From IMG/VR virus record IMGVR_UViG_2877263951_000002: a stretch of DNA of 16,767 nucleotides. One strand, 5' to 3'. Positions 1-16,079 of the stretch are shown piece by piece. The notes under the pieces were generated by a model. That model did no database searches, was not told where the DNA came from, and saw only the letters and a program-made list of their open reading frames with translations. The DNA is from a virus (taxonomy: Duplodnaviria; Heunggongvirae; Uroviricota; Caudoviricetes). The translations under genes were made by a program, and so were the position numbers. Every line of letters begins with the position of its first letter. The stretch's first letter is position 1.

Positions 1-561
1 TCAAAACTGAAAGCGCATCCAGGCAAAGTACACATTGCCATTGTTGTAGGTACCCGGAATGTAGGTCATCTGAAAAGTCACTGGGCCATAACCCACGGAG
101 GCCAATGGCAGTAGAACCGGGAGAGGGATGTAATTCCAGTTATCGCGTGCCGTTACGCCAGCGGTGAATCCCAGACCTAAATGAAAATTTTCATCCGCCA
201 GCGGTCGCCAGGTACTTTCCCATCCGTATCCGGCAATCGGTTCCCATTTGTTCCACGAGTCCTTAAATGCCATGGCATACAGGCCATGCCAGTTTCCTTT
301 TTCATCCCAACGCGACAGGCCAAAACCGCCACCCCACGGTCGCTCGTTATAGCGATCGGTTTTTTCTTTGTCGTAAGCGAAACGTGCATGCCAGGTGATG
401 GCAGGAATATATAAATCATAATGTTCAGGCTGTTGCCAGGTTTGTGCAATATTTTCTCTAAACGTTGTCATCCTCTCATCTGCGTTAGCAAAAACTTTAC
501 CAACGCTGATTAACTGAATAAAAACAAAGGAAAAGATAGCGACATATTTACTCACGTTCAT
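1..561 (-). CDS. pagP: lipid A palmitoyltransferase PagP (CrcA)
   Basis: Minus-strand ORF with stop TGA at 1-3 (window edge) and ATG at 559-561, 186 aa ([12 protein letters not shown]...YFAWMRFQF). Recognised as E. coli PagP. The 8 extra N-terminal residues in the ORF track come from an upstream TTG and are not used. Confidence 0.9.
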
Positions 562-1047
562 TTGTGACCATAAAACATTTATCAAAAATCTACTACTAGC
601 ATAGCAAAGCTACAATTAACATAACCTTAATAGACCCAACATAAAGAATAATCTGAATAGCTGCTCTATTTATTTCCGCTTGTTCAAGTTAAATATTTCC
701 GCGCATCGATTAAAGATGATGCGTCGTTTTCTGCGATGGGAATAGTCAAAAAAGAAAAACCAAGTCTTTTTTGATGACAAAATGCAATCAAGGAAAAATT
801 ATTTTATTTTTTTAACGAGATACAACAATCATCTTAACGAAGTATATAATATATATCGTCAACCCATGCTCATATTAGATTATTTTTTGAGCGCACAGCC
901 GCAGCTAACACCATTGCAATTAACAAATTTGCATCAATCCACCATCAATTTACACACATTATTATGTGATAATTGCCAACCGCTAAATATGCGTTTTGTT
1001 ATCTATGTATAAAAACAGCAACTTCAATGTCTTAATGGCAGTTTTTC

Positions 1048-1061
1048 TTGATTTTAATCAG
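1048..1061 (+). promoter_or_regulatory. putative FNR binding site upstream of dcuC
   Basis: TTGATtttaATCAg, 9/10 match to FNR consensus TTGAT-N4-ATCAA, centred about 95 nt upstream of the dcuC ATG. dcuC is known to be anaerobically induced via FNR. Site not experimentally verified here. Confidence 0.4.
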
Positions 1062-1149
1062 CATTCATCGCCAATTTATTGGGCATATTTTTTCCTTAAG
1101 CTTTAGGAAGTTTTTATTATTTACTTTGGGCCTGGAGACAGGAAAAATT

Positions 1150-2535
1150 ATGCTGACATTCATTGAACTCCTTATTGGGGTTGTGGTTATTGTGGGTGTG
1201 GCTCGCTACATCATTAAAGGGTATTCCGCCACTGGTGTGTTATTTGTCGGTGGCCTGTTATTGCTGATTATCAGTGCCATTATGGGGCACAAAGTGTTAC
1301 CGTCCAGCCAGGCTTCAACAGGCTACAGCGCCACGGATATCGTTGAATACGTTAAAATATTACTAATGAGCCGCGGCGGCGACCTCGGCATGATGATTAT
1401 GATGCTGTGTGGCTTTGCCGCTTACATGACCCATATCGGCGCGAATGATATGGTGGTCAAGCTGGCGTCAAAACCATTGCAGTATATTAACTCCCCTTAC
1501 CTGCTGATGATTGCCGCCTATTTTGTTGCTTGTCTGATGTCACTGGCCGTCTCTTCCGCAACCGGTCTGGGTGTTTTGCTGATGGCAACCCTGTTTCCGG
1601 TGATGGTAAACGTTGGTATCAGTCGTGGCGCAGCAGCTGCCATTTGTGCCTCCCCGGCGGCGATTATTCTCGCACCGACTTCAGGGGATGTGGTGCTGGC
1701 GGCGCAGGCTTCCGAAATGTCGCTGATTGACTTCGCCTTCAAAACGACGCTGCCTATCTCAATTGCTGCAATTATCGGCATGGCGATCGCCCACTTCTTC
1801 TGGCAACGTTATCTGGATAAAAAAGAGCACATCTCTCATGAAATGTTAGATGTCAGTGAAATCACCACCACTGCCCCCGCGTTTTATGCCATTTTGCCGT
1901 TCACGCCGATCATCGGTGTACTGATTTTTGACGGTAAATGGGGTCCGCAATTACACATCATCACTATTCTGGTGATTTGTATGCTGATTGCCTCCATTCT
2001 GGAGTTCCTCCGCAGCTTTAATACCCAGAAAGTTTTCTCTGGTCTGGAAGTGGCTTATCGCGGGATGGCAGATGCGTTTGCTAACGTGGTGATGCTGCTG
2101 GTTGCCGCTGGGGTATTCGCTCAGGGGCTTAGCACCATCGGCTTTATTCAAAGTCTGATTTCTATCGCTACCTCGTTTGGTTCGGCGAGTATCATCCTGA
2201 TGCTGGTATTGGTGATTCTGACCATGCTGGCGGCAGTCACGACCGGTTCAGGCAATGCGCCGTTTTATGCGTTTGTTGAGATGATCCCGAAACTGGCGCA
2301 CTCTTCCGGCATTAACCCGGCGTATTTGACTATCCCGATGCTGCAGGCGTCAAACCTGGGTCGTACCCTATCACCCGTTTCTGGCGTAGTCGTTGCGGTT
2401 GCCGGGATGGCGAAAATCTCACCATTTGAAGTCGTAAAACGCACCTCGGTGCCGGTGCTTGTTGGGCTAGTGATTGTTATCGTTGCTACAGAGCTGATGG
2501 TGCCAGGAACGGCAGCAGCGGTCACAGGCAAGTAA
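1150..2535 (+). CDS. dcuC: anaerobic C4-dicarboxylate transporter DcuC
   Basis: ATG at 1150 preceded by AGGA (1140-1143), stop TAA 2533-2535, 461 aa, very hydrophobic multi-pass membrane protein. Recognised as E. coli DcuC; divergent from pagP and convergent with dpiA as in E. coli K-12. The 34-residue upstream extension in the ORF track is not used. Confidence 0.92.
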   Translation: MLTFIELLIGVVVIVGVARYIIKGYSATGVLFVGGLLLLIISAIMGHKVLPSSQASTGYSATDIVEYVKILLMSRGGDLGMMIMMLCGFAAYMTHIGANDMVVKLASKPLQYINSPYLLMIAAYFVACLMSLAVSSATGLGVLLMATLFPVMVNVGISRGAAAAICASPAAIILAPTSGDVVLAAQASEMSLIDFAFKTTLPISIAAIIGMAIAHFFWQRYLDKKEHISHEMLDVSEITTTAPAFYAILPFTPIIGVLIFDGKWGPQLHIITILVICMLIASILEFLRSFNTQKVFSGLEVAYRGMADAFANVVMLLVAAGVFAQGLSTIGFIQSLISIATSFGSASIILMLVLVILTMLAAVTTGSGNAPFYAFVEMIPKLAHSSGINPAYLTIPMLQASNLGRTLSPVSGVVVAVAGMAKISPFEVVKRTSVPVLVGLVIVIVATELMVPGTAAAVTGK

Positions 2536-2543
2536 ATAGTAAT

Positions 2544-2570
2544 GCCGGAGGCAAGTTTCCTCCGGCTTTA
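2544..2570. terminator. putative bidirectional intrinsic terminator between convergent dcuC and dpiA
   Basis: Inverted repeat GCCGGAGG (2544-2551) / CCTCCGGC (2559-2566) with a 7-nt loop, followed by TTTA; sits between the dcuC stop (2533-2535) and the dpiA stop (2576-2578). Confidence 0.45.
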
Positions 2571-2575
2571 TCATG

Positions 2576-2917
2576 TCACCCACTGTGGTATATGCGTTGT
2601 GGTCTGCCAACTTTGCCGTGAACAATTTCAGCAATAATCAGATGGCGGCTGGCGCAATATTCAAGATAACGCCTGGCAGTGGTGCGGCTGATGGTCAGTG
2701 CCTGCGCCACCGTTTCTGCCGTATGTTGCACACCAGGCTCTTTAAACAGTTTTCGCACCGCGTTTAGCGTCAAGGGGTCAATGCCGGTCGGCAGTTCGTC
2801 TTTGGGTTCACCGCGAGCATAGGCATTAAACATCTCATCAATTTGCTTCTGGCTGGCGCTATCAATACTTTCCAGCATATGTTTACGCTGGCGGAAACGG
2901 GTTAGCGTTTGCCCCAG
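2576..2917 (-). pseudogene. dpiA: 3' half of response regulator gene dpiA (citB), interrupted by Mu-type insertion
   Basis: Minus-strand frame open from 2917 to stop TGA 2576-2578 (113 codons: LGQTLTRFRQRKHMLESIDSASQKQIDEMF...RRYLEYCASRHLIIAEIVHGKVGRPQRIYHSG), recalled as the C-terminal DNA-binding half of DpiA. The frame closes 3-4 codons into the Mu-type end (stop at 2927-2929). N-terminal receiver half is not in the window. Confidence 0.8.
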
Positions 2918-3088
2918 TGTATTGATTCACTTGAAGTACGAAAAAACCGGGAGAACATTGGATTATTCGGGATCTGATGGGATTAGATTTGGTGGGGCTT
3001 GCAAGCCTGTAGTACAAATTTTAGGCGTTAACCAATGAAACGCGAAAGATAGTAAAAAATTGCTTTTGTTTCATTGAAAAAACGAAAA
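2918..3088 (+). other. Mu-type attL with transposase end-binding sites (L1 2923-2944; L3-like 3067-3088)
   Basis: 2923-2944 TGATTCACTTGAAGTACGAAAA and 3067-3088 TGTTTCATTGAAAAAACGAAAA both fit the MuA end-site consensus TGNTTCAYTNNAARYRCGAAAA; 3036-3049 contains an ACGCGAAAG half-site-like motif. Confidence 0.7.
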
Positions 3089-3254
3089 ACAAAAACACTA
3101 TAAATCATTTCAATCATAGCTTCAAAAAACGTTCAAAACCGATAACAACCAGGCTGTCACCAAATGACTCATATCACAAATCAGCTCATGCCGTTTAGGT
3201 ATGTTACATGTGTGATTATGTGAGGTGAAGTATGTTTTAGCTGGCTCATGGTTG

Positions 3255-3764
3255 TTATACGGCTTTTTTCGCATCTTGTGGTTCCAACAAAGGAGCTACA
3301 GGCTCTTCCTGTTTATGAACACCATACATTGACAAAATCTCTTGGCGAGTTTCTGGAGGTAATTTATGCAGCGCCAAAGCTGTTTGTAGTGTTTGGCGAT
3401 CAATACCCAGCGTTGCCAATAGGGTGTCAACGGAGATGGAGGGGCGTTCTTGCATTAATCCGGAAAGCCCATATTTAGCCATGTTTAGCTCTATCTCTCG
3501 GACTTCATTTTCTCCTAGTTTATTGATTAACAGGGAGAACATTTTCAATGTATCAGCATTCATTTCTTCGATAGCAATTTTTTGCATAGCCGGTATTGCC
3601 GGGATATATTCAACCCCAGGCCCGCGACGCCCTTCTTGTGAACGCTTCGGCCATCCTTCTTTCTTTGCTCGTTTATGCACCCCCTGTATTGTCCCTGGCA
3701 TTCCATCCAGTTCAGTAATTTGTTTGGGTGTCATCCACTGGTTTATCTCATTTGCGCTTTTCAT
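3255..3764 (-). CDS. c: Mu/D108-type repressor (Repc-like)
   Basis: ATG 3762-3764, stop TAA 3255-3257, 169 aa. The C-terminal region (...RQEILSMYGVHKQEEPVAPLLEPQDAKKAV) closely resembles the Mu repressor C-terminus (...KEILSKYGIHEQES...KKAV) and the N-terminus has the MPG..GVH.RA...GW.KR winged-helix motif shared with MuA and Mu Repc. Divergent from Mu in detail, so D108-like by inference. Confidence 0.8.
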   Translation of the reverse strand: MKSANEINQWMTPKQITELDGMPGTIQGVHKRAKKEGWPKRSQEGRRGPGVEYIPAIPAMQKIAIEEMNADTLKMFSLLINKLGENEVREIELNMAKYGLSGLMQERPSISVDTLLATLGIDRQTLQTALALHKLPPETRQEILSMYGVHKQEEPVAPLLEPQDAKKAV

Positions 3765-3917
3765 AAACTAAGTTTACCAGATTTATCTATATAAAAATCA
3801 ATGGATTACAAAATAAACCACATTAACTGATATAAACCAGTTTTGTTTATTTGGTAATGTATAAAACAGATAATCAAGACGAATTATTTGTTTTGGTAAC
3901 CCTTTATCATACGCAAT
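3765..3917. promoter_or_regulatory. early operator/promoter region between divergent c and ner (expected Pe/Pc and repressor operators)
   Basis: 153-bp AT-rich spacer between divergently transcribed repressor and ner, the position of O1-O3, the IHF site and Pe/Pc in Mu. Individual operators were not delimited from sequence alone. Confidence 0.45.
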
Positions 3918-4172
3918 ATGGTTGGTGTGCGAAAGATGAGTAACGATTGGCATCGGGCCGACGTGATTGCGGCCCTCAAAAAAACAGGAACCCCTCTGGC
4001 AAAATTGTCCAGACGTTCAGGTTATTCAACCGGGACGCTTGCAAATGCATTAGTCAGGCCATGGCCTAAAGGTGAACGCATTATTGCTGACGCCTTAAAC
4101 ATGAAACCTGAGGAAATTTGGCCTAGTAGATATCTAAGGGATCACAATGAGAGAGTGGATATCAGCAATTGA
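3918..4172 (+). CDS. ner: Ner-like DNA-binding early regulator
   Basis: ATG 3918 (alternative ATG at 3936), stop TGA 4170-4172. [13 protein letters not shown]...TLANAL...WPKGE.IIA.AL...PE.IWPSRY matches the Mu Ner family along its length. The 3' end overlaps the A start by 26 nt. Confidence 0.75.
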
Positions 4173-5781
4173 ATGCATGGGTTTATCTGGTTTACCTGGT
4201 TCATTAATGGGGGTTCACAAAAGAGCTCAGAGAGAAGGATGGCTCAAGAGAAGAAGAGAAGGAATTAGAGGGGTTGCTTACGAATACCATATATCTTCTC
4301 TTCCTAACATTGCTCGAGCTGAAGTTTTGCTCCAACAAGGAAAATTTAAAACCAGTCAGGGATGTTTTGAAATCGCCCGCCCCACGCTGGAAGCTCATGA
4401 TTATGATCGTGAGGCACTATGGAGCAAATGGGATAAAGCCAGCGATTCCCAGCGCAGCCTGGCTGAAAAATGGTTGCCCTCAATTCAGGCCACAGACGAA
4501 ATGCTGAACCAGGGGATTTCAACGAAAACGGCTTTTGCGACCGTTGCAGGGCATTACCAGGTCAGCGCATCCACTTTGCGGGACAAGTATTACCAGGTAC
4601 AGAAGTTTGCGAAGCCTGACTGGGCGGCTGCACTTGTTGATGGACGTGGAGCATCCCGTCGCAATGTTCACAAAAGTGAATTTGACGAGGATGCCTGGCA
4701 GTTTCTGATTGCAGATTATCTGCGACCGGAAAAACCCGCCTTCCGCAAATGTTATGAGCGTCTGGAACTGGCAGTCCGCGAGCATGGCTGGAGTATTCCC
4801 TCCCGTGCCACGGCCTTTCGCCGGATTCAGCAACTGGACGAGGCAATGGTTGTTGCCTGTCGTGAAGGTGAACATGCACTGATGCATCTGATACCGGCAC
4901 AGCAGCGAACTGTGGAACACCTGGACGCCATGCAGTGGATCAACGGCGACGGTTATCTGCATAACGTCTTTGTACGCTGGTTTAACGGTGATGTGATCCG
5001 TCCGAAAACATGGTTCTGGCAGGATGTGAAAACCCGAAAAATTCTGGGCTGGCGCTGCGATGTGAGCGAGAACATTGATTCAATTCGCCTCTCGTTCATG
5101 GATGTTGTGACTCGCTACAGTATCCCGGAGGATTTTCACATCACCATTGATAACACCCGTGGTGCTGCGAATAAATGGCTGACGGGAGGCGCGCCCAATC
5201 GCTACCGCTTTAAGGTAAAAGAGGACGATCCAAAAGGACTGTTTTTACTGATGGGTGCGAAAATGCACTGGACAAGCGTTGTTGCCGGTAAAGGCTGGGG
5301 CCAGGCAAAACCTGTTGAACGTGCTTTCGGTGTTGGTGGGCTTGAGGAATACGTTGATAAGCATCCGGCACTGGCTGGCGCATATACGGGGCCAAATCCG
5401 CAGGCAAAACCTGATAACTATGGCGACCACGCTGTTGATGCAGAGCTGTTTCTGAAAACCTTTGCCGAAGGTGTGGCGATGTTCAATGCCAGAACAGGCC
5501 GTGAAACAGAAATGTGCGGGGGCAAACTCTCGTTTGATGATGTTTTCGAGCGTGAATACGCCAGAACGATTGTGCGTAAGCCAACCGAAGAACAAAAACG
5601 GATGCTGTTACTGCCTGCCGAGGCGGTGAACGTTTCACGCAAAGGCGAGTTTACGCTTAAAGTTGGCGGCTCCCTTAAAGGCGCGAAAAACGTTTATTAC
5701 AACATGGCATTAATGAATGCCGGAGTGAAAAAAGTTGTGGTCAGATTTGATCCACAGCAGTTACACAGCACGGTTTATTGA
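4147..5781 (+). pseudogene. A: Mu-type transposase A, 3'-truncated (544 of about 663 codons); stop codon supplied by IS600 terminus
   Basis: ATG 4147 with AAGGGA 6-7 nt upstream; protein near-identical to recalled MuA over residues about 60-544 (...[12 protein letters not shown]) and divergent in the first about 60 residues. After codon 544 the sequence becomes the IS600 end (TGA at 5779-5781). Confidence 0.9.
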
Positions 5782-5842
5782 GATAGCCTGAGTTTAACGG
5801 ACACTCCTTCCTGAAATAGAATGGCATCAGAAGGAGCTAATA

Positions 5843-6145
5843 ATGAGCAGAAAAACCCGACGTTACTCTAAAGAGTTCAAAGCCGAAGCTGTCAGAACGG
5901 TTCTTGAAAATCAACTTTCGATCAGTGAAGACGCTTCCCGATTATTCCTTCCTGAAGGCACTTTAGGACAATGGGTTACCGCCGCCAGAAAAGGGCTCGG
6001 TACTCCTGGTTCCCGCACGCTGGCTGAACTGGAATCTGAAATTCTGCAACTGCGTAAGGCGTTAAATGAAGCTCGCCTTGAGCGAGATATATTAAAAAAA
6101 GCAACAGCGTATTTTGCACAGGAGTCGCTGAAAAATACGCGTTAA
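5843..6145 (+). CDS. IS600 OrfA (transposase N-terminal HTH subunit)
   Basis: ATG 5843 with GGAG 8 nt upstream; 100 aa MSRKTRRYSKEFKAEAV...; contains the slippery run at 6094-6100. Confidence 0.85.
   Translation: MSRKTRRYSKEFKAEAVRTVLENQLSISEDASRLFLPEGTLGQWVTAARKGLGTPGSRTLAELESEILQLRKALNEARLERDILKKATAYFAQESLKNTR
6094..6100 (+). other. programmed -1 ribosomal frameshift heptamer A_AAA_AAA(G) of IS600 copy 1
   Basis: Zero-frame codons AAA AAA at 6095-6100 in orfA; the -1 frame is open from 6100 through the orfB ATG at 6181, as expected for OrfAB fusion transposase of IS3-family elements. Confidence 0.6.
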
Positions 6146-6180
6146 TCGAACAATGGCGACAACAATTTCCCATTGAAGCG

Positions 6181-6999
6181 ATGTGTCAGGTATTTGGTGT
6201 ATCCAGGAGCGGTTATTACAACTGGGTACAGCATGAACCCTCAGACAGAAAACAAAGTGATGAACGGCTAAAACTGGAGATTAAGGTGGCACATATCCGC
6301 ACTCGCGAAACATATGGAACCCGGCGGCTCCAGACGGAGCTGGCAGAGAATGGCATCATCGTTGGTCGTGACCGACTGGCATGTCTTCGTAAGGAGCTGA
6401 GGCTACGCTGTAAGCAGAAACGCAAGTTCAGAGCGACTACGAACCCGAACCACAATCTGCCAGTTGCGCCAAATCTGCTGAACCAGACGTTCGCTCCTAC
6501 AGCACCAAATCAGGTCTGGGTGGCGGACCTGACGTATGTTGCCACACAGGAGGGATGGTTGTACCTCGCTGGCATCAAAGATGTTTATACGTGCGAAATT
6601 GTCGGCTACGCCATGGGAGAGCGCATGACAAAAGAGCTGACAGGTAAAGCCCTGTTTATGGCGCTCAGGAGCCAGCGCCCACCTGCCGGGCTAATCCACC
6701 ACTCTGATCGAGGTTCACAGTACTGCGCATACGATTACCGGGTCATACAGGAGCAGTCTGGTCTGAAAACATCAATGTCGCGTAAAGGTAACTGTTACGA
6801 CAACGCTCCGATGGAAAGCTTCTGGGGAACGCTGAAAAATGAGAGCCTGAGCCACTATCGTTTTAATAACCGGGATGAAGCCATCTCAGTAATACGGGAA
6901 TACATTGAGATTTTCTACAATCGTCAGCGTCGTCACTCTCGTCTGGGGAATATCTCCCCGGCAGCCTTCAGGGAAAAATATCATCAGATGGCTGCTTAA
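6181..6999 (+). CDS. IS600 OrfB (DDE catalytic domain; normally expressed as OrfAB fusion)
   Basis: 272-aa ORF in the -1 frame relative to orfA; contains typical IS3-family DDE region (...WVADLTYV..., ...HSDRGSQY..., ...NCYDNAPMESFWGTLK...). Confidence 0.85.
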   Translation: MCQVFGVSRSGYYNWVQHEPSDRKQSDERLKLEIKVAHIRTRETYGTRRLQTELAENGIIVGRDRLACLRKELRLRCKQKRKFRATTNPNHNLPVAPNLLNQTFAPTAPNQVWVADLTYVATQEGWLYLAGIKDVYTCEIVGYAMGERMTKELTGKALFMALRSQRPPAGLIHHSDRGSQYCAYDYRVIQEQSGLKTSMSRKGNCYDNAPMESFWGTLKNESLSHYRFNNRDEAISVIREYIEIFYNRQRRHSRLGNISPAAFREKYHQMAA

Positions 7000-7042
7000 A
7001 AAAAGAACAAATGGTAGTGTCCGCTATTGCCAGTACACCTCA

Positions 7043-9172: not shown

Positions 9173-9236
9173 TGAGGTAGCCTGAGTTTAACGGACACTC
9201 CTTCCTGAAATAGAATGGCATCAGAAGGAGCTAATA

Positions 9237-9539
9237 ATGAGCAGAAAAACCCAACGTTACTCTAAAGAGTTCAAAGCCGAAGCTGTCAGAACGGTTCTTG
9301 AAAATCAACTTTCGATCAGTGAAGGCGCTTCCCGATTATCTCTTCCTGAAGGCACTTTAGGACAATGGGTTACCGCCGCCAGAAAAGGGCTCGGTACTCC
9401 TGGTTCCCGCACGCTGGCTGAACTGGAATCTGAAATTCTGCAACTGCGTAAGGCGTTAAATGAAGCTCGCCTTGAGCGAGATATATTAAAAAAAGCAACA
9501 GCGTATTTTGCACAGGAGTCGCTGAAAAATACGCGTTAA
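9237..9539 (+). CDS. IS600 OrfA
   Basis: 100 aa; differs from copy 1 OrfA at 3 residues (Q6, G30, S35 versus R, D, F). Confidence 0.85.
   Translation: MSRKTQRYSKEFKAEAVRTVLENQLSISEGASRLSLPEGTLGQWVTAARKGLGTPGSRTLAELESEILQLRKALNEARLERDILKKATAYFAQESLKNTR
9488..9494 (+). other. programmed -1 frameshift heptamer A_AAA_AAA(G) of IS600 copy 2
   Basis: Same position as in copy 1 (offset 3394). Confidence 0.6.
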
Positions 9540-9574
9540 TCGAACAATGGCGACAACAATTTCCTATTGAAGCG

Positions 9575-10393
9575 ATGTGTCAGGTATTTGGTGTATCCAG
9601 GAGCGGTTATTACAACTGGGTACAGCATGAACCCTCAGACAGAAAACAAAGTGATGAGCGGCTAAAACTGGAGATTAAGGTGGCACATATCCGCACTCGC
9701 GAAACATATGGAACCCGGCGGCTCCAGACGGAGCTGGCAGAGAATGGCATCATCGTTGGTCGTGACCGACTGGCACGTCTTCGTAAGGAGCTGAGGCTAC
9801 GCTGTAAGCAGAAACGCAAGTTCAGAGCGACTACGAACCCGAACCACAATCTGCCAGTTGCGCCAAATCTGCTGAACCAGACGTTCGCTCCTACAGCACC
9901 AAATCAGGTCTGGGTGGCGGACCTGACGTATGTTGCCACACAGGAGGGATGGTTGTACCTCGCTGGCATCAAAGATGTTTATACGTGCGAAATTGTCGGC
10001 TACGCCATGGGAGAGCGCATGACAAAAGAGCTGACAGGTAAAGCCCTGTTTATGGCGCTCAGGAGCCAGCGCCCACCTGCCGGGCTAATCCACCACTCTG
10101 ATCGAGGTTCACAGTACTGCGCATACGATTACCGGGTCATACAGGAGCAGTTTGGTCTGAAAACATCAATGTCGCGTAAAGGTAACTGTTACGACAACGC
10201 TCCGATGGAAAGCTTCTGGGGAACGCTGAAAAATGAGAGCCTGAGCCACTATCGTTTTAATAACCGGGATGAAGCCATCTCAGTAATACGGGAATACATT
10301 GAGATTTTCTACAATCGTCAGCGTCGTCACTCTCGTCTGGGGAATATCTCCCCGGCAGCCTTCAGGGAAAAATATCATCAGATGGCTGCTTAA
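9575..10393 (+). CDS. IS600 OrfB
   Basis: 272 aa; differs from copy 1 OrfB at 2 residues (R versus C; F versus S). Confidence 0.85.
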   Translation: MCQVFGVSRSGYYNWVQHEPSDRKQSDERLKLEIKVAHIRTRETYGTRRLQTELAENGIIVGRDRLARLRKELRLRCKQKRKFRATTNPNHNLPVAPNLLNQTFAPTAPNQVWVADLTYVATQEGWLYLAGIKDVYTCEIVGYAMGERMTKELTGKALFMALRSQRPPAGLIHHSDRGSQYCAYDYRVIQEQFGLKTSMSRKGNCYDNAPMESFWGTLKNESLSHYRFNNRDEAISVIREYIEIFYNRQRRHSRLGNISPAAFREKYHQMAA

Positions 10394-10436
10394 AAAAAGA
10401 ACAAATGGTAGTGTCCGCTATTGCCAGTACACCTCA

Positions 10437-12002: not shown

Positions 12003-13320
12003 TCTCGATGTCCTCGTTGGTAATGGATGCCCCTATGCCGGTTACGTCAGAATTTTCTCGCAAATCAGTCATAGCGGCTTTCAGTGTCATCAGACCATCA
12101 CCCAGCGCCGTACTGATTGCGTTGGTGGTGTTTAACGCCACCGTTGAGCGATCGACATCAGACATTTGCCAGAGCGGGTTAAACTCAAACGTGAAATCGT
12201 CCGGCAGCGGCTTGCCAAGTTCCGAACGATGCATGATGTCCAGTATCCGCCGCACCGGAAGACGTAAACGCCTCTCCTGCAACGAACTGATGCGATCGTA
12301 ATAGTTGGCAAGGTCTGCATCACCGGTAGAAAATCCTTTCGGGGACTGTCCGAACAACCGCACCAGTGGGATACCAACAGCGCCACTAATCTGTTCTGCA
12401 AACTGCGAAAGGATGTCATCCAGACCACTGAAGCTGTACTGATGGGTTTCAAACTTATCCCGCGAGTCCATGAGCGTCATGCCTTCATTACTCTGGAACT
12501 GTCGAATCAGGTCGATATTCTTCAGCAACGCTTCATACGCAGGACCACCAAGTGCGATAAGCTCGCGTAGCTTCTCCACGCTGTAGGTACGCAAATGCGC
12601 CTTGTAGACCAGCTGCGCCGCGCCGACAGTAGCGCTGTCGAACGCGGTAAGACGATCCCAGATACGCTCTACAACCGACATTCCCCATTCGTTCTCGGTC
12701 ATCTTCTGCTGAAATGGCAACGTGACGCCATCAAAGCGAATCAGGCGACTGTGATGAATGCGCCAGGCAGGAATTCCCGTTGCTGTGGTCACCACATCGT
12801 AAAACTCAGGTTTACCCAGGTCCGGCCCCATATCTTTAATGCGGCGGGTCAGTGCCGGGTCGACCATCCAGCGGTCGAGCGGGAGAATCCCCTTAAACTT
12901 GCCCTTACCGATGGTTTCGGGTCGCAGCGGGGTCATTGGTGCCTGCCCCTCAATCATGATGAAACCCACCGCGCCGCCGTAGAGGCGCGACCATTTCAGC
13001 ACGTCATTCAGCGCATCCCAGATTTGCAACTCATCCAGTTGTGATTCGAGAATGCCACGATCTTTTGCATCAATTTCCGAAGTGATGCGAATGCCTTTGC
13101 GGGTCATATCATCCGGGATAGCATCGACTGCTTCGCCGATGATCCAGGATGAACGATAGGACCATTCCACCAGCATGCGGTTACGACTGGTGAAATTAGC
13201 CCGGTAGGTGGATGCTGAGTGCTGGTTAGGTGTCTGCATCCCTACTCGGGCAATAAAATTCTCATAACCATCAGCTGTGGCCTGCACAGTTCGCCGCAGG
13301 GCTTGTTTGTTTCGTGCCAT
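11854..13320 (-). CDS. phage portal protein (DUF1073-like by recall)
   Basis: ATG 13318-13320 overlapping the TerL stop (ATGA), stop TGA 11854-11856, 488 aa with acidic C-terminal tail; position between TerL and head morphogenesis gene. Confidence 0.7.
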   Translation of the reverse strand: MARNKQALRRTVQATADGYENFIARVGMQTPNQHSASTYRANFTSRNRMLVEWSYRSSWIIGEAVDAIPDDMTRKGIRITSEIDAKDRGILESQLDELQIWDALNDVLKWSRLYGGAVGFIMIEGQAPMTPLRPETIGKGKFKGILPLDRWMVDPALTRRIKDMGPDLGKPEFYDVVTTATGIPAWRIHHSRLIRFDGVTLPFQQKMTENEWGMSVVERIWDRLTAFDSATVGAAQLVYKAHLRTYSVEKLRELIALGGPAYEALLKNIDLIRQFQSNEGMTLMDSRDKFETHQYSFSGLDDILSQFAEQISGAVGIPLVRLFGQSPKGFSTGDADLANYYDRISSLQERRLRLPVRRILDIMHRSELGKPLPDDFTFEFNPLWQMSDVDRSTVALNTTNAISTALGDGLMTLKAAMTDLRENSDVTGIGASITNEDIENAEDEAPPGIGEPDDEPQEPSGGNPVSNQPTQDSEGGRRHRKWSLRWFK

Positions 13321-14053
13321 CAGGCCTGTCTCCCCAGCTGTTCCCAGATATCCAGCGATGTATCGATTGGCGCGAAGGCCATAATGAATGCATCAGCAAC
13401 GTTTGGTGACGGTATCTCGCGTTTTGCGAGGTCTTTTTTACTTTCGACCATCACACGTCCGTTACGGTCGAAATCACGATGAGGTGTTGTCAGTTCCAGT
13501 TTCAGCTTTTCAAGCAACGGACAACGAGAATCTATGCTGATCAGCTCATCCACAGGATACTGTTCTCCGTTGTTAATGGCGTTAAACGTATTTCTGAAAC
13601 GGTCAGCCACCATGCCTGAGCCTTAAGATTTGCGAAAAAGTCTTTGTTGGGGATGCCGTTGTACTCGTCATCTGGCTCATGCACACCAGCACCGGCGTTA
13701 AACCTCTGGTAATTCACACGTCGCGCGTATGCGTTCTCGCTCTTCCGGTCAGCGTTAATTTCAGAGAATTTAGCACCGGCAGACGCACCAACACCGATAG
13801 AGTCGTAAACAATATCTGCTTCACGCTCCAGCGCCGCCTGATAAGTACGCTGGCAGCTCTTCAGTAATTCATCTTCTTTGGCCTTCCATTCGTCGGCCCA
13901 GAAAACAACGGATCCGTGACGGTAAACGTTAGCGCACTTATCTGTACCACTGTCAGCCACGTCAAAGCCAATACGCTTTCTTCCACTGGGTTCGAAATTT
14001 AACGTTTTGTGCGCATCCACTGCGGCTTCTATCCAAGACAGTTTGATGATTGC
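13320..14053 (-). pseudogene. terminase large subunit, 3' (nuclease-domain) part; separated from its 5' part by IS2 and carrying a 1-bp frameshift near 13604-13612
   Basis: Two overlapping minus-strand frames: 14053-13544 (...NLKAQAWW LTVSEIR... stop 13541-13543) and 13622-13323 (...VADRFRNTFNAINNGEQYP...RVMVESKKDLAKREIPSPNVADAFIMAF..., stop TGA 13320-13322). Together they resemble a single TerL C-terminus. Confidence 0.7.
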
Positions 14054-14064
14054 TGGATTTGCCC

Positions 14065-14970
14065 CTATATTTCCAGACATCTGTTATCACTTAACCCATT
14101 ACAAGCCCGCTGCCGCAGATATTCCCGTGGCGAGCGATAACCCAGCGCACTATGCGGATGCCATTCGTTATAATGCTCGAACGCCTCTGCAAGGTTCTTT
14201 GCTGCCGTTAACCCGTCTGGTTTGGGCATGATACTGATGTAGTCACGCTTTATCGTTTTCACGAAGCTCTATGCTATTCCGTTACTCTCCGGACTCCGCA
14301 CCGCCGTGTTCTTCGGTTCAAGTCCCAACATCCGGGCGAACTGGCGTGTTTCATTAGCCCGGTAGCATGAACCATTATCCGTCAGCCACTCCACTGGAGA
14401 CGACGGAAGATCGTTGCCGAAGCGGCGTTCCACCGCTCCCAGCATGACGTCCTGTACTGTTTCACTGTTGAAGCCGCCGGTAGTCACCGCCCAGTGCAGT
14501 GCCTCACGATCACAGCAGTCCAGCGCGAACGTGACACGCAGTCTCTCTCCGTTATCACAGCAGAACTCGAACCCGTCAGAGCACCATCGCTGATTGCTTT
14601 CTTTCACGGCCACTCTGCCTGTATGTGCCCGTTTCGATGGCGGTACAGCAGGTTTTCGCTCAAGCAACAGCGCATTCTGGCGCATGAGCCGGTAAACACG
14701 TTTGGCATTGATCGCAGGCATACCATCAAGTTCTGCCTGTCTGCGAAGCAGCGCCCATACCCGACGATAACCATACGTGGGCAGCTCTCCGATAACATGG
14801 TGTATACGGAGAAGCACATCCGTATCATCAGTGTGACGACTGCGGCGGCCATCCATCCAGTCATCGGTTCGTCTGAGAATGACGTGCAACTGCGCACGCG
14901 ACACCCGGAGACAACGGCTGACTAAGCTTACTCCCCATCCCCGGGCAATAAGGGCGCGTGCGCTATCCAC
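14065..14970 (-). pseudogene. insD: IS2 insD (OrfB, DDE transposase domain) with in-frame TAG at 14269-14271
   Basis: GTG at 14968-14970 (the -1 frame entry point), frame open to TAG at 14269-14271 (233 codons), then the same frame continues for 67 more InsD-like codons to TAG at 14065-14067 (...[19 protein letters not shown]...NRCLEI). Recalled canonical InsD has Glu at this codon. Confidence 0.8.
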
Positions 14971-15293
14971 TTTTTTGCCCGTCCATATTCAACGGCTTCT
15001 TTGAGGAGTTCATTTTCCATCGTTTTCTTGCCGAGCAGGCGCTGGAGTTCTTTAATCTGCTTCATGGCGGCAGCAAGTTCAGAGGCAGGAACAACCTGTT
15101 CTCCGGCGGCCACAGCAGTAAGACTTCCTTCCTGGTATTGCTTACGCCAGAGAAATAACTGGCTGGCTGCTACACCATGTTGCCGGGCAACGAGGGAGAC
15201 CGTCATCCCCGGTTCAAAGCTCTGCTGAACAATTGCGATCTTTTCCTGTGTGGTACGCCGTCTGCGTTTCTCCGGCCCTAAGACATCAATCAT
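14928..15293 (-). CDS. insC: IS2 InsC (OrfA, HTH subunit)
   Basis: ATG 15291-15293, stop TAA 14928-14930, 121 aa [26 protein letters not shown]...; the 15 extra N-terminal residues in the ORF track are not used. Slippery heptamer A_AAA_AAG on minus strand at 14970-14976. Confidence 0.88.
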
Positions 15294-15384
15294 CTGTTCT
15301 CCAATGACTAGTCTAAAAACTAGTATTAAGACTATCACTTAAATAAGTGATACTGGTTGTCTGGAGATTCAGGGGGCCAGTCTA

Positions 15385-16079
15385 ATTGCCGCATCATCAT
15401 CAGACTCCGGAACGCCCTCATACACATGTTTAAAACCATCCGGATCACGGCGTCGCGCCGCGTCGATAACCTTAAGCATGGTGTCAGACAGAAACGGATT
15501 TTCGTCATAGTTAATTTTGCGGATGAGAGTGCCTTCGGGCGGATCAACAACGAAGTTGCGCCAGACGAAATCAGTAACAAGTCCGGGGTTGAATATGAAC
15601 CAGCATTCCGAACCCTCTTTACGGATCGTTGGCTCCAGAATTTTCCACTGGTATTCCGTCAGTGCGTGGGCTTCTTCCAGCCACAACATATCGATCCCCT
15701 CCAGTGACTTAATTTCTTCGATGTTGCGCCATAATCCATAAAAAACAAATTCCGAGCCAGTAACCCGGTTAATGATTTTGTTGTTCAGAATACGGAAACG
15801 GTGCCGCAGACCAAACCTGTCTATCTGAATTTTGAGCAGGGTATACACCGACTCTTCGATTTTATTCTGGATCTGACGGGCACAACAAAAACGCAGGGTG
15901 TATTTATTCGACAGAAATATGGCAATGCCAGCGGCATCCCATGATTTTGACGATGACCGACCACCATAAAGCACTTTGTTACGTGCCCGCATAGTCCAGA
16001 AACTACGTAAAGCCGGATTCAGCGTCGGTTTGGATGTCAGAGTAGAAGTCATTGAGGTCACGCTCTCCATTGCCATCAT
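15385..16079 (-). pseudogene. terminase large subunit, 5' (ATPase-domain) part, interrupted by IS2
   Basis: Frame open from candidate ATGs at 16091/16079/16076/16070/16052 (16079 chosen: AGGT 5 nt upstream) down to the IS2 boundary; contains a Walker A-like motif (VLYGGRSSSKS). The frame continues in phase into 14053 after removing IS2 and one copy of ATTGC. Start is uncertain; the TTG at 16160 in the ORF track is not used. Confidence 0.65.

Follow-up and report, generated by a model that had tools for sequence, protein, structure and literature searches.

The IS2 copy that lies in the terminase gene of a Shigella flexneri prophage raises two questions: what its transposase loses through a stop codon that interrupts insD, and how this stop codon reached an element that is otherwise complete. 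The window, which is the whole stretch of 16,767 nucleotides analysed, matches CP026765.1 (1019422-1040123) with 100% identity over 12,499 bp, and its source is thus this genome or one almost identical to it.

Structure of the IS2 copy and of its target site

The element and the gene that it interrupts show the following features.

14054..15384, minus strand: complete IS2 of the IS3 family, 1331 bp, from a gapless full-length alignment to K-12 IS2A
15385..15389, minus strand: target-site duplication GCAAT on the IRL side, within the flank ...gcggcaat before TAGACTGG
14049..14053, minus strand: target-site duplication GCAAT on the IRR side, within the flank gcaatcatc after CAAATCCA
15335..15350 (IS 35-50), minus strand: left-end hairpin TCACTT-ATTT-AAGTGA, with the loop inverted relative to K-12
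14928..15293, minus strand: insC (orfA), intact, 121 aa, whose protein equals K-12 InsC (Pfam HTH_Tnp_1, E = 1.8e-19)
14970..14976 (IS 409-415), minus strand: A6G slippery heptamer AAAAAAG, intact, for the -1 frameshift that gives OrfAB
14269..14970, minus strand: 5' part of insD (orfB), 233 codons, with a premature TAG end, from the ORF list and Pfam
14269..14271, minus strand: amber codon in place of GAG, at InsD E234, which is OrfAB E342, from the alignment and the published triad
14065..14268, minus strand: untranslated remainder of insD, 67 codons and the normal stop, with no substitution 3' of IS position 1114
15385..16052, minus strand: N-terminal fragment of the terminase gene, cut by IS2 (Pfam Terminase_3, E = 7.9e-39)
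13320..14053, minus strand: C-terminal fragment of the terminase gene, from the alignment of the reconstructed gene to that of E. coli FDAARGOS_944 (L002)

The reference element is IS2A of E. coli K-12 MG1655 (NC_000913.3, 381260-382590). BLAST alignment of IS positions 1-1331 (window 15384-14054) to this element shows 99.4% identity, with eight mismatches and no gaps: one at position 32 (A to G), two at positions 42-43 (AA to TT), one at position 274 (synonymous, insC codon 61), two at positions 606 and 900 (both synonymous, in insD), one at position 697 (InsD I95L) and one at position 1114 (window 14271), which changes insD codon 234 from GAG to TAG. The ends of the element, TAGACTGG...CAAATCCA, are those of K-12 IS2A. 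The terminal inverted repeats are imperfect, the terminal bases, TAGACTGGCCCC... and ...GGGGCAAATCCA, match those of K-12 IS2A, and in the left end only positions 32 and 42-43 differ. The window copy and K-12 IS2A are thus alike in their length of 1331 bp, end bases, 5-bp duplication, InsC protein, A6G site and insD frame. They differ at insD E234 (OrfAB E342), which is an amber codon in the window copy, at I95L, which is also general in the IS2 of S. flexneri (P0002), and at three synonymous or non-coding changes that the window copy has in common with other Shigella-type copies. In all structural respects but the DDE triad, which is incomplete, the element is an IS2.

The interrupted gene encodes the large subunit of a PBSX-type phage terminase. 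In E. coli FDAARGOS_944 (L002) this gene is uninterrupted, with a length of 1404 bp, and shows a single ATTGC at the insertion point. Since GCAAT is found at both flanks of the window copy and only one ATTGC is present in the empty site, the insertion of IS2 is genuine and duplicated 5 bp of its target.

Some further differences are found in and around these features. The loop of the left-end hairpin (IS positions 41-44) is ATTT in the window and AAAT in K-12, each being the exact reverse complement of the other. The AAAT form is present in two IS2 copies of CP026765.1 (L038 and L040), so both forms coexist there, and other strains have it at the orthologous terminase site (L020 and L021), which suggests either recurrent flipping of the loop or conversion. 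In the terminase gene, besides IS2, the C-terminal fragment shows a 7-bp deletion near 13603 relative to E. coli FDAARGOS_944. As a result of this deletion, the C-terminal part is divided between two ORFs, one of 179 aa and another that has 97 aa in the window and is called with 77 aa in relatives; the same two are called in all the S. flexneri loci read. An independent IS2 insertion is present in the same terminase gene of E. coli FDAARGOS_943 (L001, 14877-16207), 220 bp away and with GAG at codon 234. The record of this strain is rich in IS1 and contains 20 matches to the query, which are presumably for the most part copies of IS2.

The prophage contains two more insertion sequences, and with IS2 this makes three IS insertions in one prophage. 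They are two IS3-family copies of about 1264 bp with about 99% mutual identity, at 5779-7042 and 9173-10436 of the window, which are probably IS600. The first copy interrupts a Mu-type transposase gene (4147-5781) at its 3' end and the second sits in a DUF2213 head gene. The region 3255-5781, beside dcuC and pagP, contains genes of the Mu-like repressor type and the MuA transposase type (DDE_2, HTH_Tnp_Mu_1 and HTH_Tnp_Mu_2). Next to these genes are head genes whose module looks different (Phage_portal_3, Mu F-like, DUF2213 and Terminase_3), and the region resembles what is left of a mosaic or rearranged prophage.

The amber codon and the catalytic glutamate

The minus strand reads GGA ATA GCA TAG AGC TTC GTG AAA ACG ATA AAG CGT GAC TAC, with the TAG at 14271-14269. 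An earlier note, made on this DNA from its letters, had described it as a single G-to-T change of a canonical GAG (Glu) that breaks a frame otherwise continuing to its normal end, and the alignments agree with this description. The 233-aa ORF (14269..14970, minus strand) stops at 14271-14269; the frame goes on for 67 codons (14268-14068) of unchanged InsD sequence, whose protein is the same as that of K-12 InsD, up to the normal stop at 14067-14065; K-12 IS2A shows GAG, and no stop, at this codon; and the base-by-base alignment places the change at IS position 1114, which is window 14271. The insC ORF and the frameshift heptamer, which had been considered intact, are so: InsC equals K-12 InsC and A6G is at IS 409-415. 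The loss of the C-terminal part of the catalytic core, also foreseen from the letters, is confirmed by the stop at codon 234 and by the Pfam matches of the truncated InsD, which keeps those to HTH_21 and rve and loses that to rve_3 (residues 216-281 of the intact protein).

As in IS2, insC (orfA) and insD (orfB) overlap and are joined by a -1 frameshift on A6G, a window described for this element (PMC3219604). The frameshift joins residues 1-108 of InsC to codon 1 of InsD, so residue n of InsD is residue n+108 of OrfAB, and the fusion has 409 aa. This offset of 108 fits all nine published residues compared (W237, D240, H267, R291, V301, D306, A341, E342 and E391). The catalytic carboxylates of IS2 OrfAB are D240, D306 and E342, the last one on helix alpha4 (Lewis et al., 2011; PMC3219604). 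Since the Pfam rve model stops at InsD residue 227 and the Glu is outside the model, the assignment of E342 was made from the published triad and the numbering check. Codon 234 being E342, the stop removes the catalytic Glu and the whole sequence that follows, with helices alpha4 to alpha6, and the DDE triad is incomplete: of its three residues D240 and D306 remain, and the codon for E342 is now a stop.

Translation of the window copy after the -1 frameshift would stop at residue 341 of OrfAB. The predicted product, OrfAB(1-341), would keep the DNA-binding and oligomerisation regions and both aspartates and, with neither the third carboxylate nor helices alpha4-alpha6, would not cut or join DNA. 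The same helix alpha4 is hit in engineered core mutants of IS2 OrfAB, among which A341P and A341T are neighbours of E342. A341P, adjacent to E342, abolished DNA binding, W237R, L266P and V301M abolished transposition, and the whole catalytic core is needed for activity and full binding of IS2 OrfAB (PMC3219604). These mutants are missense changes in a full-length protein, whereas the product of the window copy ends at residue 341, and the literature search found no assay of a stop at E342 or of such a truncation. From the role of the DDE triad and from the neighbouring mutants, no active transposase would be expected from the window copy, even with read-through.

A full-length, active transposase made by read-through or suppression of the amber codon is extremely improbable. 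The 67 downstream codons are unchanged, which speaks for this explanation, but a recent change, or conversion that keeps a copy uniform, would also leave the 3' sequence unaltered, and the stop codon occupies the position of the catalytic Glu. The residues inserted by the known amber suppressors and by near-cognate read-through are Gln, Tyr, Trp, Ser, Leu or Lys, and Glu is not among them. Since the missing residue is catalytic, the insertion of another amino acid by either route would give no rescue. A suppressor tRNA encoded nearby was considered separately and rejected, the window having no tRNA genes.

With intact ends and an inactivated transposase gene, the window copy is, as judged from its sequence, a defective, non-autonomous IS copy. 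The earlier note had called it probably transposition-defective; "non-autonomous" is the better term for the element, given its intact ends and the presence of at least eight intact IS2 copies in CP026765.1. The window copy may be mobilised in trans by intact IS2 copies. IS censuses and annotators should count such copies as non-autonomous, since the stop removes the catalytic glutamate.

Rarity and spread of the TAG allele

The TAG allele was searched with a query of 55 bases that had the stop codon at its centre; shorter-word seeding matched all IS2 copies, so identity bands were used. Among 18,115 IS2 places in complete E. coli genomes (4,048 of 5,426), no exact match to the 55-mer is found and the best identity is below 99% in every record, which means one mismatch or more. 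Among 3,493 plasmid IS2 places there is no full-length exact match, and the band of at least 99% identity contains 25 plasmid records, the same number as the records with only partial coverage (25). By exact-sequence look-up, the 233-aa product (P0003) is found in only about 10 contigs (9 in this look-up), all named S. flexneri by their sources, the intact InsD with L95 and E234 (P0002, for example AAN41905.1 of strain 301) in 319 contigs and the K-12 form of InsD in at least 1000 contigs. The truncated protein is already deposited under generic transposase names, for example as EIQ77183.1.

Among the matches listed, TAG copies are found at eight distinct loci in a few S. flexneri assemblies: three loci in CP026765.1 and at least six in CP026792.1, which is S. 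flexneri 61-4982, serotype 4b (PMC9455713). Further records with TAG are UGYS01000001.1, UAUS01000007.1 and AGRC01000020.1. The same allele is present in at least five separate assemblies, so it is not an isolated error. Six of the eight loci show 5-bp duplications (GGTTG, CTGAG, GCAAT, TTCAC, CTCAT and GGGAT); of the other two, one shows no duplication and one has an unreadable left side. At six of the eight, too, the IS2 sequence compared shows 100% identity to the window copy; it covers the full 1331 bp in five of them and positions 15-1331 in the sixth (L032). Copy L007 shows three differences from the window copy, and copy L011 shows one difference and contains another IS.

The first of these divergent copies (L007/L027), at about 3,615,000 in CP026792.1, also carries TAG and has unmatched flanks, gcagg and tcacc. 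One of its three extra changes destroys the start codon of insC (ATG to ATT). This locus is probably the product of IS2-IS2 recombination or of an adjacent deletion.

CP026765.1 contains, besides its TAG loci, at least eight intact copies with GAG (L036-L043, from the look-up of P0002), so the comparison with other IS2 copies of the same genome, which the earlier note had suggested as a check, gives at least eight copies with GAG and three with TAG. Five of them (L036, L037 and L041-L043) differ from the window copy at position 1114 only; of the others, two have AA at 42-43 and one has a synonymous change at 906. Relative to the common S. flexneri IS2 allele (InsD Q7CE70_SHIFL / AAN41905.1), the window copy is alike at all the compared bases except 1114 in several CP026765.1 copies, and it differs in that the common form has GAG and encodes a 301-aa InsD and a 409-aa OrfAB. 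Another TAG copy lies about 26 kb away from the terminase-site copy, in inverted orientation (L005 and L006).

The probability that the same G-to-T change arose independently in each copy, through a mutational hotspot or through selection for inactivation, is extremely low, and nothing specific speaks for it. Such an origin would have to place the same base change at eight loci while it is absent from about 21,600 other IS2 places, and selection for inactivation gives no reason for precisely this nucleotide.

Orthologous sites and the origin of the stop codon

The terminase site was followed in other strains with one additional feature, an ORF that exists only when IS2 is at this exact site.

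13541-14080, minus strand: hybrid ORF, with its ATG inside the IS2 right end, which reads out in the native frame into the C-terminal fragment of the terminase

In the collection, 1,402 blocks contain this hybrid ORF. Among these, all ten of the other S. flexneri strains read show the same junctions and GAG; they include ATCC 29903 (CP026788.1), 1205 (CP012140.1), 2013C-3749 (CP034931.1), M2901 (CP058589.1) and 2457T (AE014073.1). Among the contigs listed, TAG at the terminase site is found in one assembly only. Since ten strains have the same insertion with GAG, the insertion is the ancestral state in S. flexneri, and the stop must have arisen in, or been brought into, an element that was already there. 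Two other sites show both codons. The site beside kdgT has GAG in CP026765.1 (L037) and TAG, with the same flank, in CP026792.1 (L012 and L031). The site in the Rha/YdaE prophage has GAG in WACK01000005.1 (L035) and TAG in CP026765.1, CP026792.1 and AGRC01000020.1 (L005, L008, L025 and L033). The derived TAG is thus present at three pre-existing orthologous insertions, with the ancestral GAG in related strains.

These sites bear on whether the TAG element multiplied by transposition, mobilised in trans by the OrfAB of intact IS2 copies. The ends of the element are intact, intact donor copies are present in the same genome, six TAG loci have their own 5-bp duplications and six are identical to the window copy over the sequence compared, all of which agrees with such a multiplication. 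Against this, the three sites tested (terminase, kdgT side and Rha prophage) are all occupied by a GAG copy elsewhere, with identical junctions. GAG at identical junctions in other strains means that the insertions are older than the allele, and transposition does not explain these three sites. IS3-family transposases such as OrfAB of IS911 act preferentially in cis, and mobilisation in trans would then be inefficient. Multiplication by transposition is, on this evidence, an unlikely source of the allele.

The window copy is very probably a complete non-autonomous IS2 that acquired the E342 amber codon in place, most likely by gene conversion. One derived base at several older insertions, with an affected set that differs between strains, is the pattern of non-reciprocal recombination, and from these sequences we infer conversion as the mechanism. 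The donor would be another TAG copy, for example the inverted one about 26 kb away, acting through non-reciprocal homologous recombination. Donor and recipient would differ at one base only, as L036, L037 and L041-L043 do at 1114, and for this reason no conversion tract can be delimited. Reciprocal crossover or inversion with the inverted TAG copy was also considered, and it was rejected: both GCAAT repeats of the window copy match and the two halves of the terminase gene are in place.

The distribution resembles concerted evolution by gene conversion among bacterial repeats in two respects: the derived base is found in several paralogues at older orthologous sites, and sister strains differ in which IS2 copies carry TAG. 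In a survey of IS families, conversion signatures were generally absent and homogeneity was attributed to recent expansion (PMC2018620); here, in contrast, conversion is proposed for IS2, from a single marker base. The literature search found nothing specific on the E342-amber allele or on IS2 gene conversion in Shigella. The same nonsense base at old orthologous sites that are wild-type in sister strains would be a direct sign of gene conversion in IS2, and identity among IS copies is no proof of recent transposition.

An assembly or polishing artefact at the terminase site is another explanation: the copy there would truly be GAG, and the T would have been imported from the reads of two genuine TAG copies. 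TAG at this site is known from one assembly among the contigs listed, the ten other strains read have GAG, and there is a TAG copy at a distance of about 26 kb, all of which speaks for an artefact. However, three TAG and at least eight GAG copies are resolved side by side in one assembly, which argues for individual calling of the copies; at least five separate assemblies show the allele, so the allele itself is real; and majority-rule mis-polishing would yield GAG, as GAG copies outnumber TAG copies. The artefact is accordingly rated as distinctly unlikely, and conversion in place is kept as the preferred explanation.

A selective role of the allele was also considered. OrfAB(1-341), together with the intact InsC, would act as a trans-dominant inhibitor of intact IS2, and its spread to at least eight loci in one S. 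flexneri group would have been favoured. The truncated OrfAB would keep the DNA-binding and oligomerisation regions and could, for that reason, inhibit intact copies; if this were so, the allele would be favoured for damping the activity of IS2 in a genome laden with IS elements. The data are explained as well by neutral conversion, and this role of the truncated protein is considered highly improbable.

Features of this kind are already known: the window copy is a decayed IS element, non-autonomous, in a prophage that is degrading and rich in IS. Shigella commonly contains broken IS copies, and by itself this one matters little. It is mildly notable in that its stop codon hits the catalytic Glu and in that the distribution of the allele points to conversion between IS copies.

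Other changes are found in the orthologous IS2 copies of the terminase site (window 14427, 14296 and 14486, compared with L014-L023), and they differ by S. flexneri lineage: R182C and one synonymous change are present in five strains, V162G in 2457T and ATCC 29903, and the E234 stop in the window. With three protein-altering changes and one synonymous change, the terminase-site IS2 looks like a copy under relaxed constraint. In strain M2901 (CP058589.1, L015), which also shows InsD R182C (OrfAB R290C), a 2-bp deletion at IS positions 409-410 leaves A4G in place of A6G. The orfA and orfB frames are fused there into a single called ORF of 408 aa, which resembles the engineered A7G high-expression allele; the fusion could be natural or could come from a sequencing error in the homopolymer.
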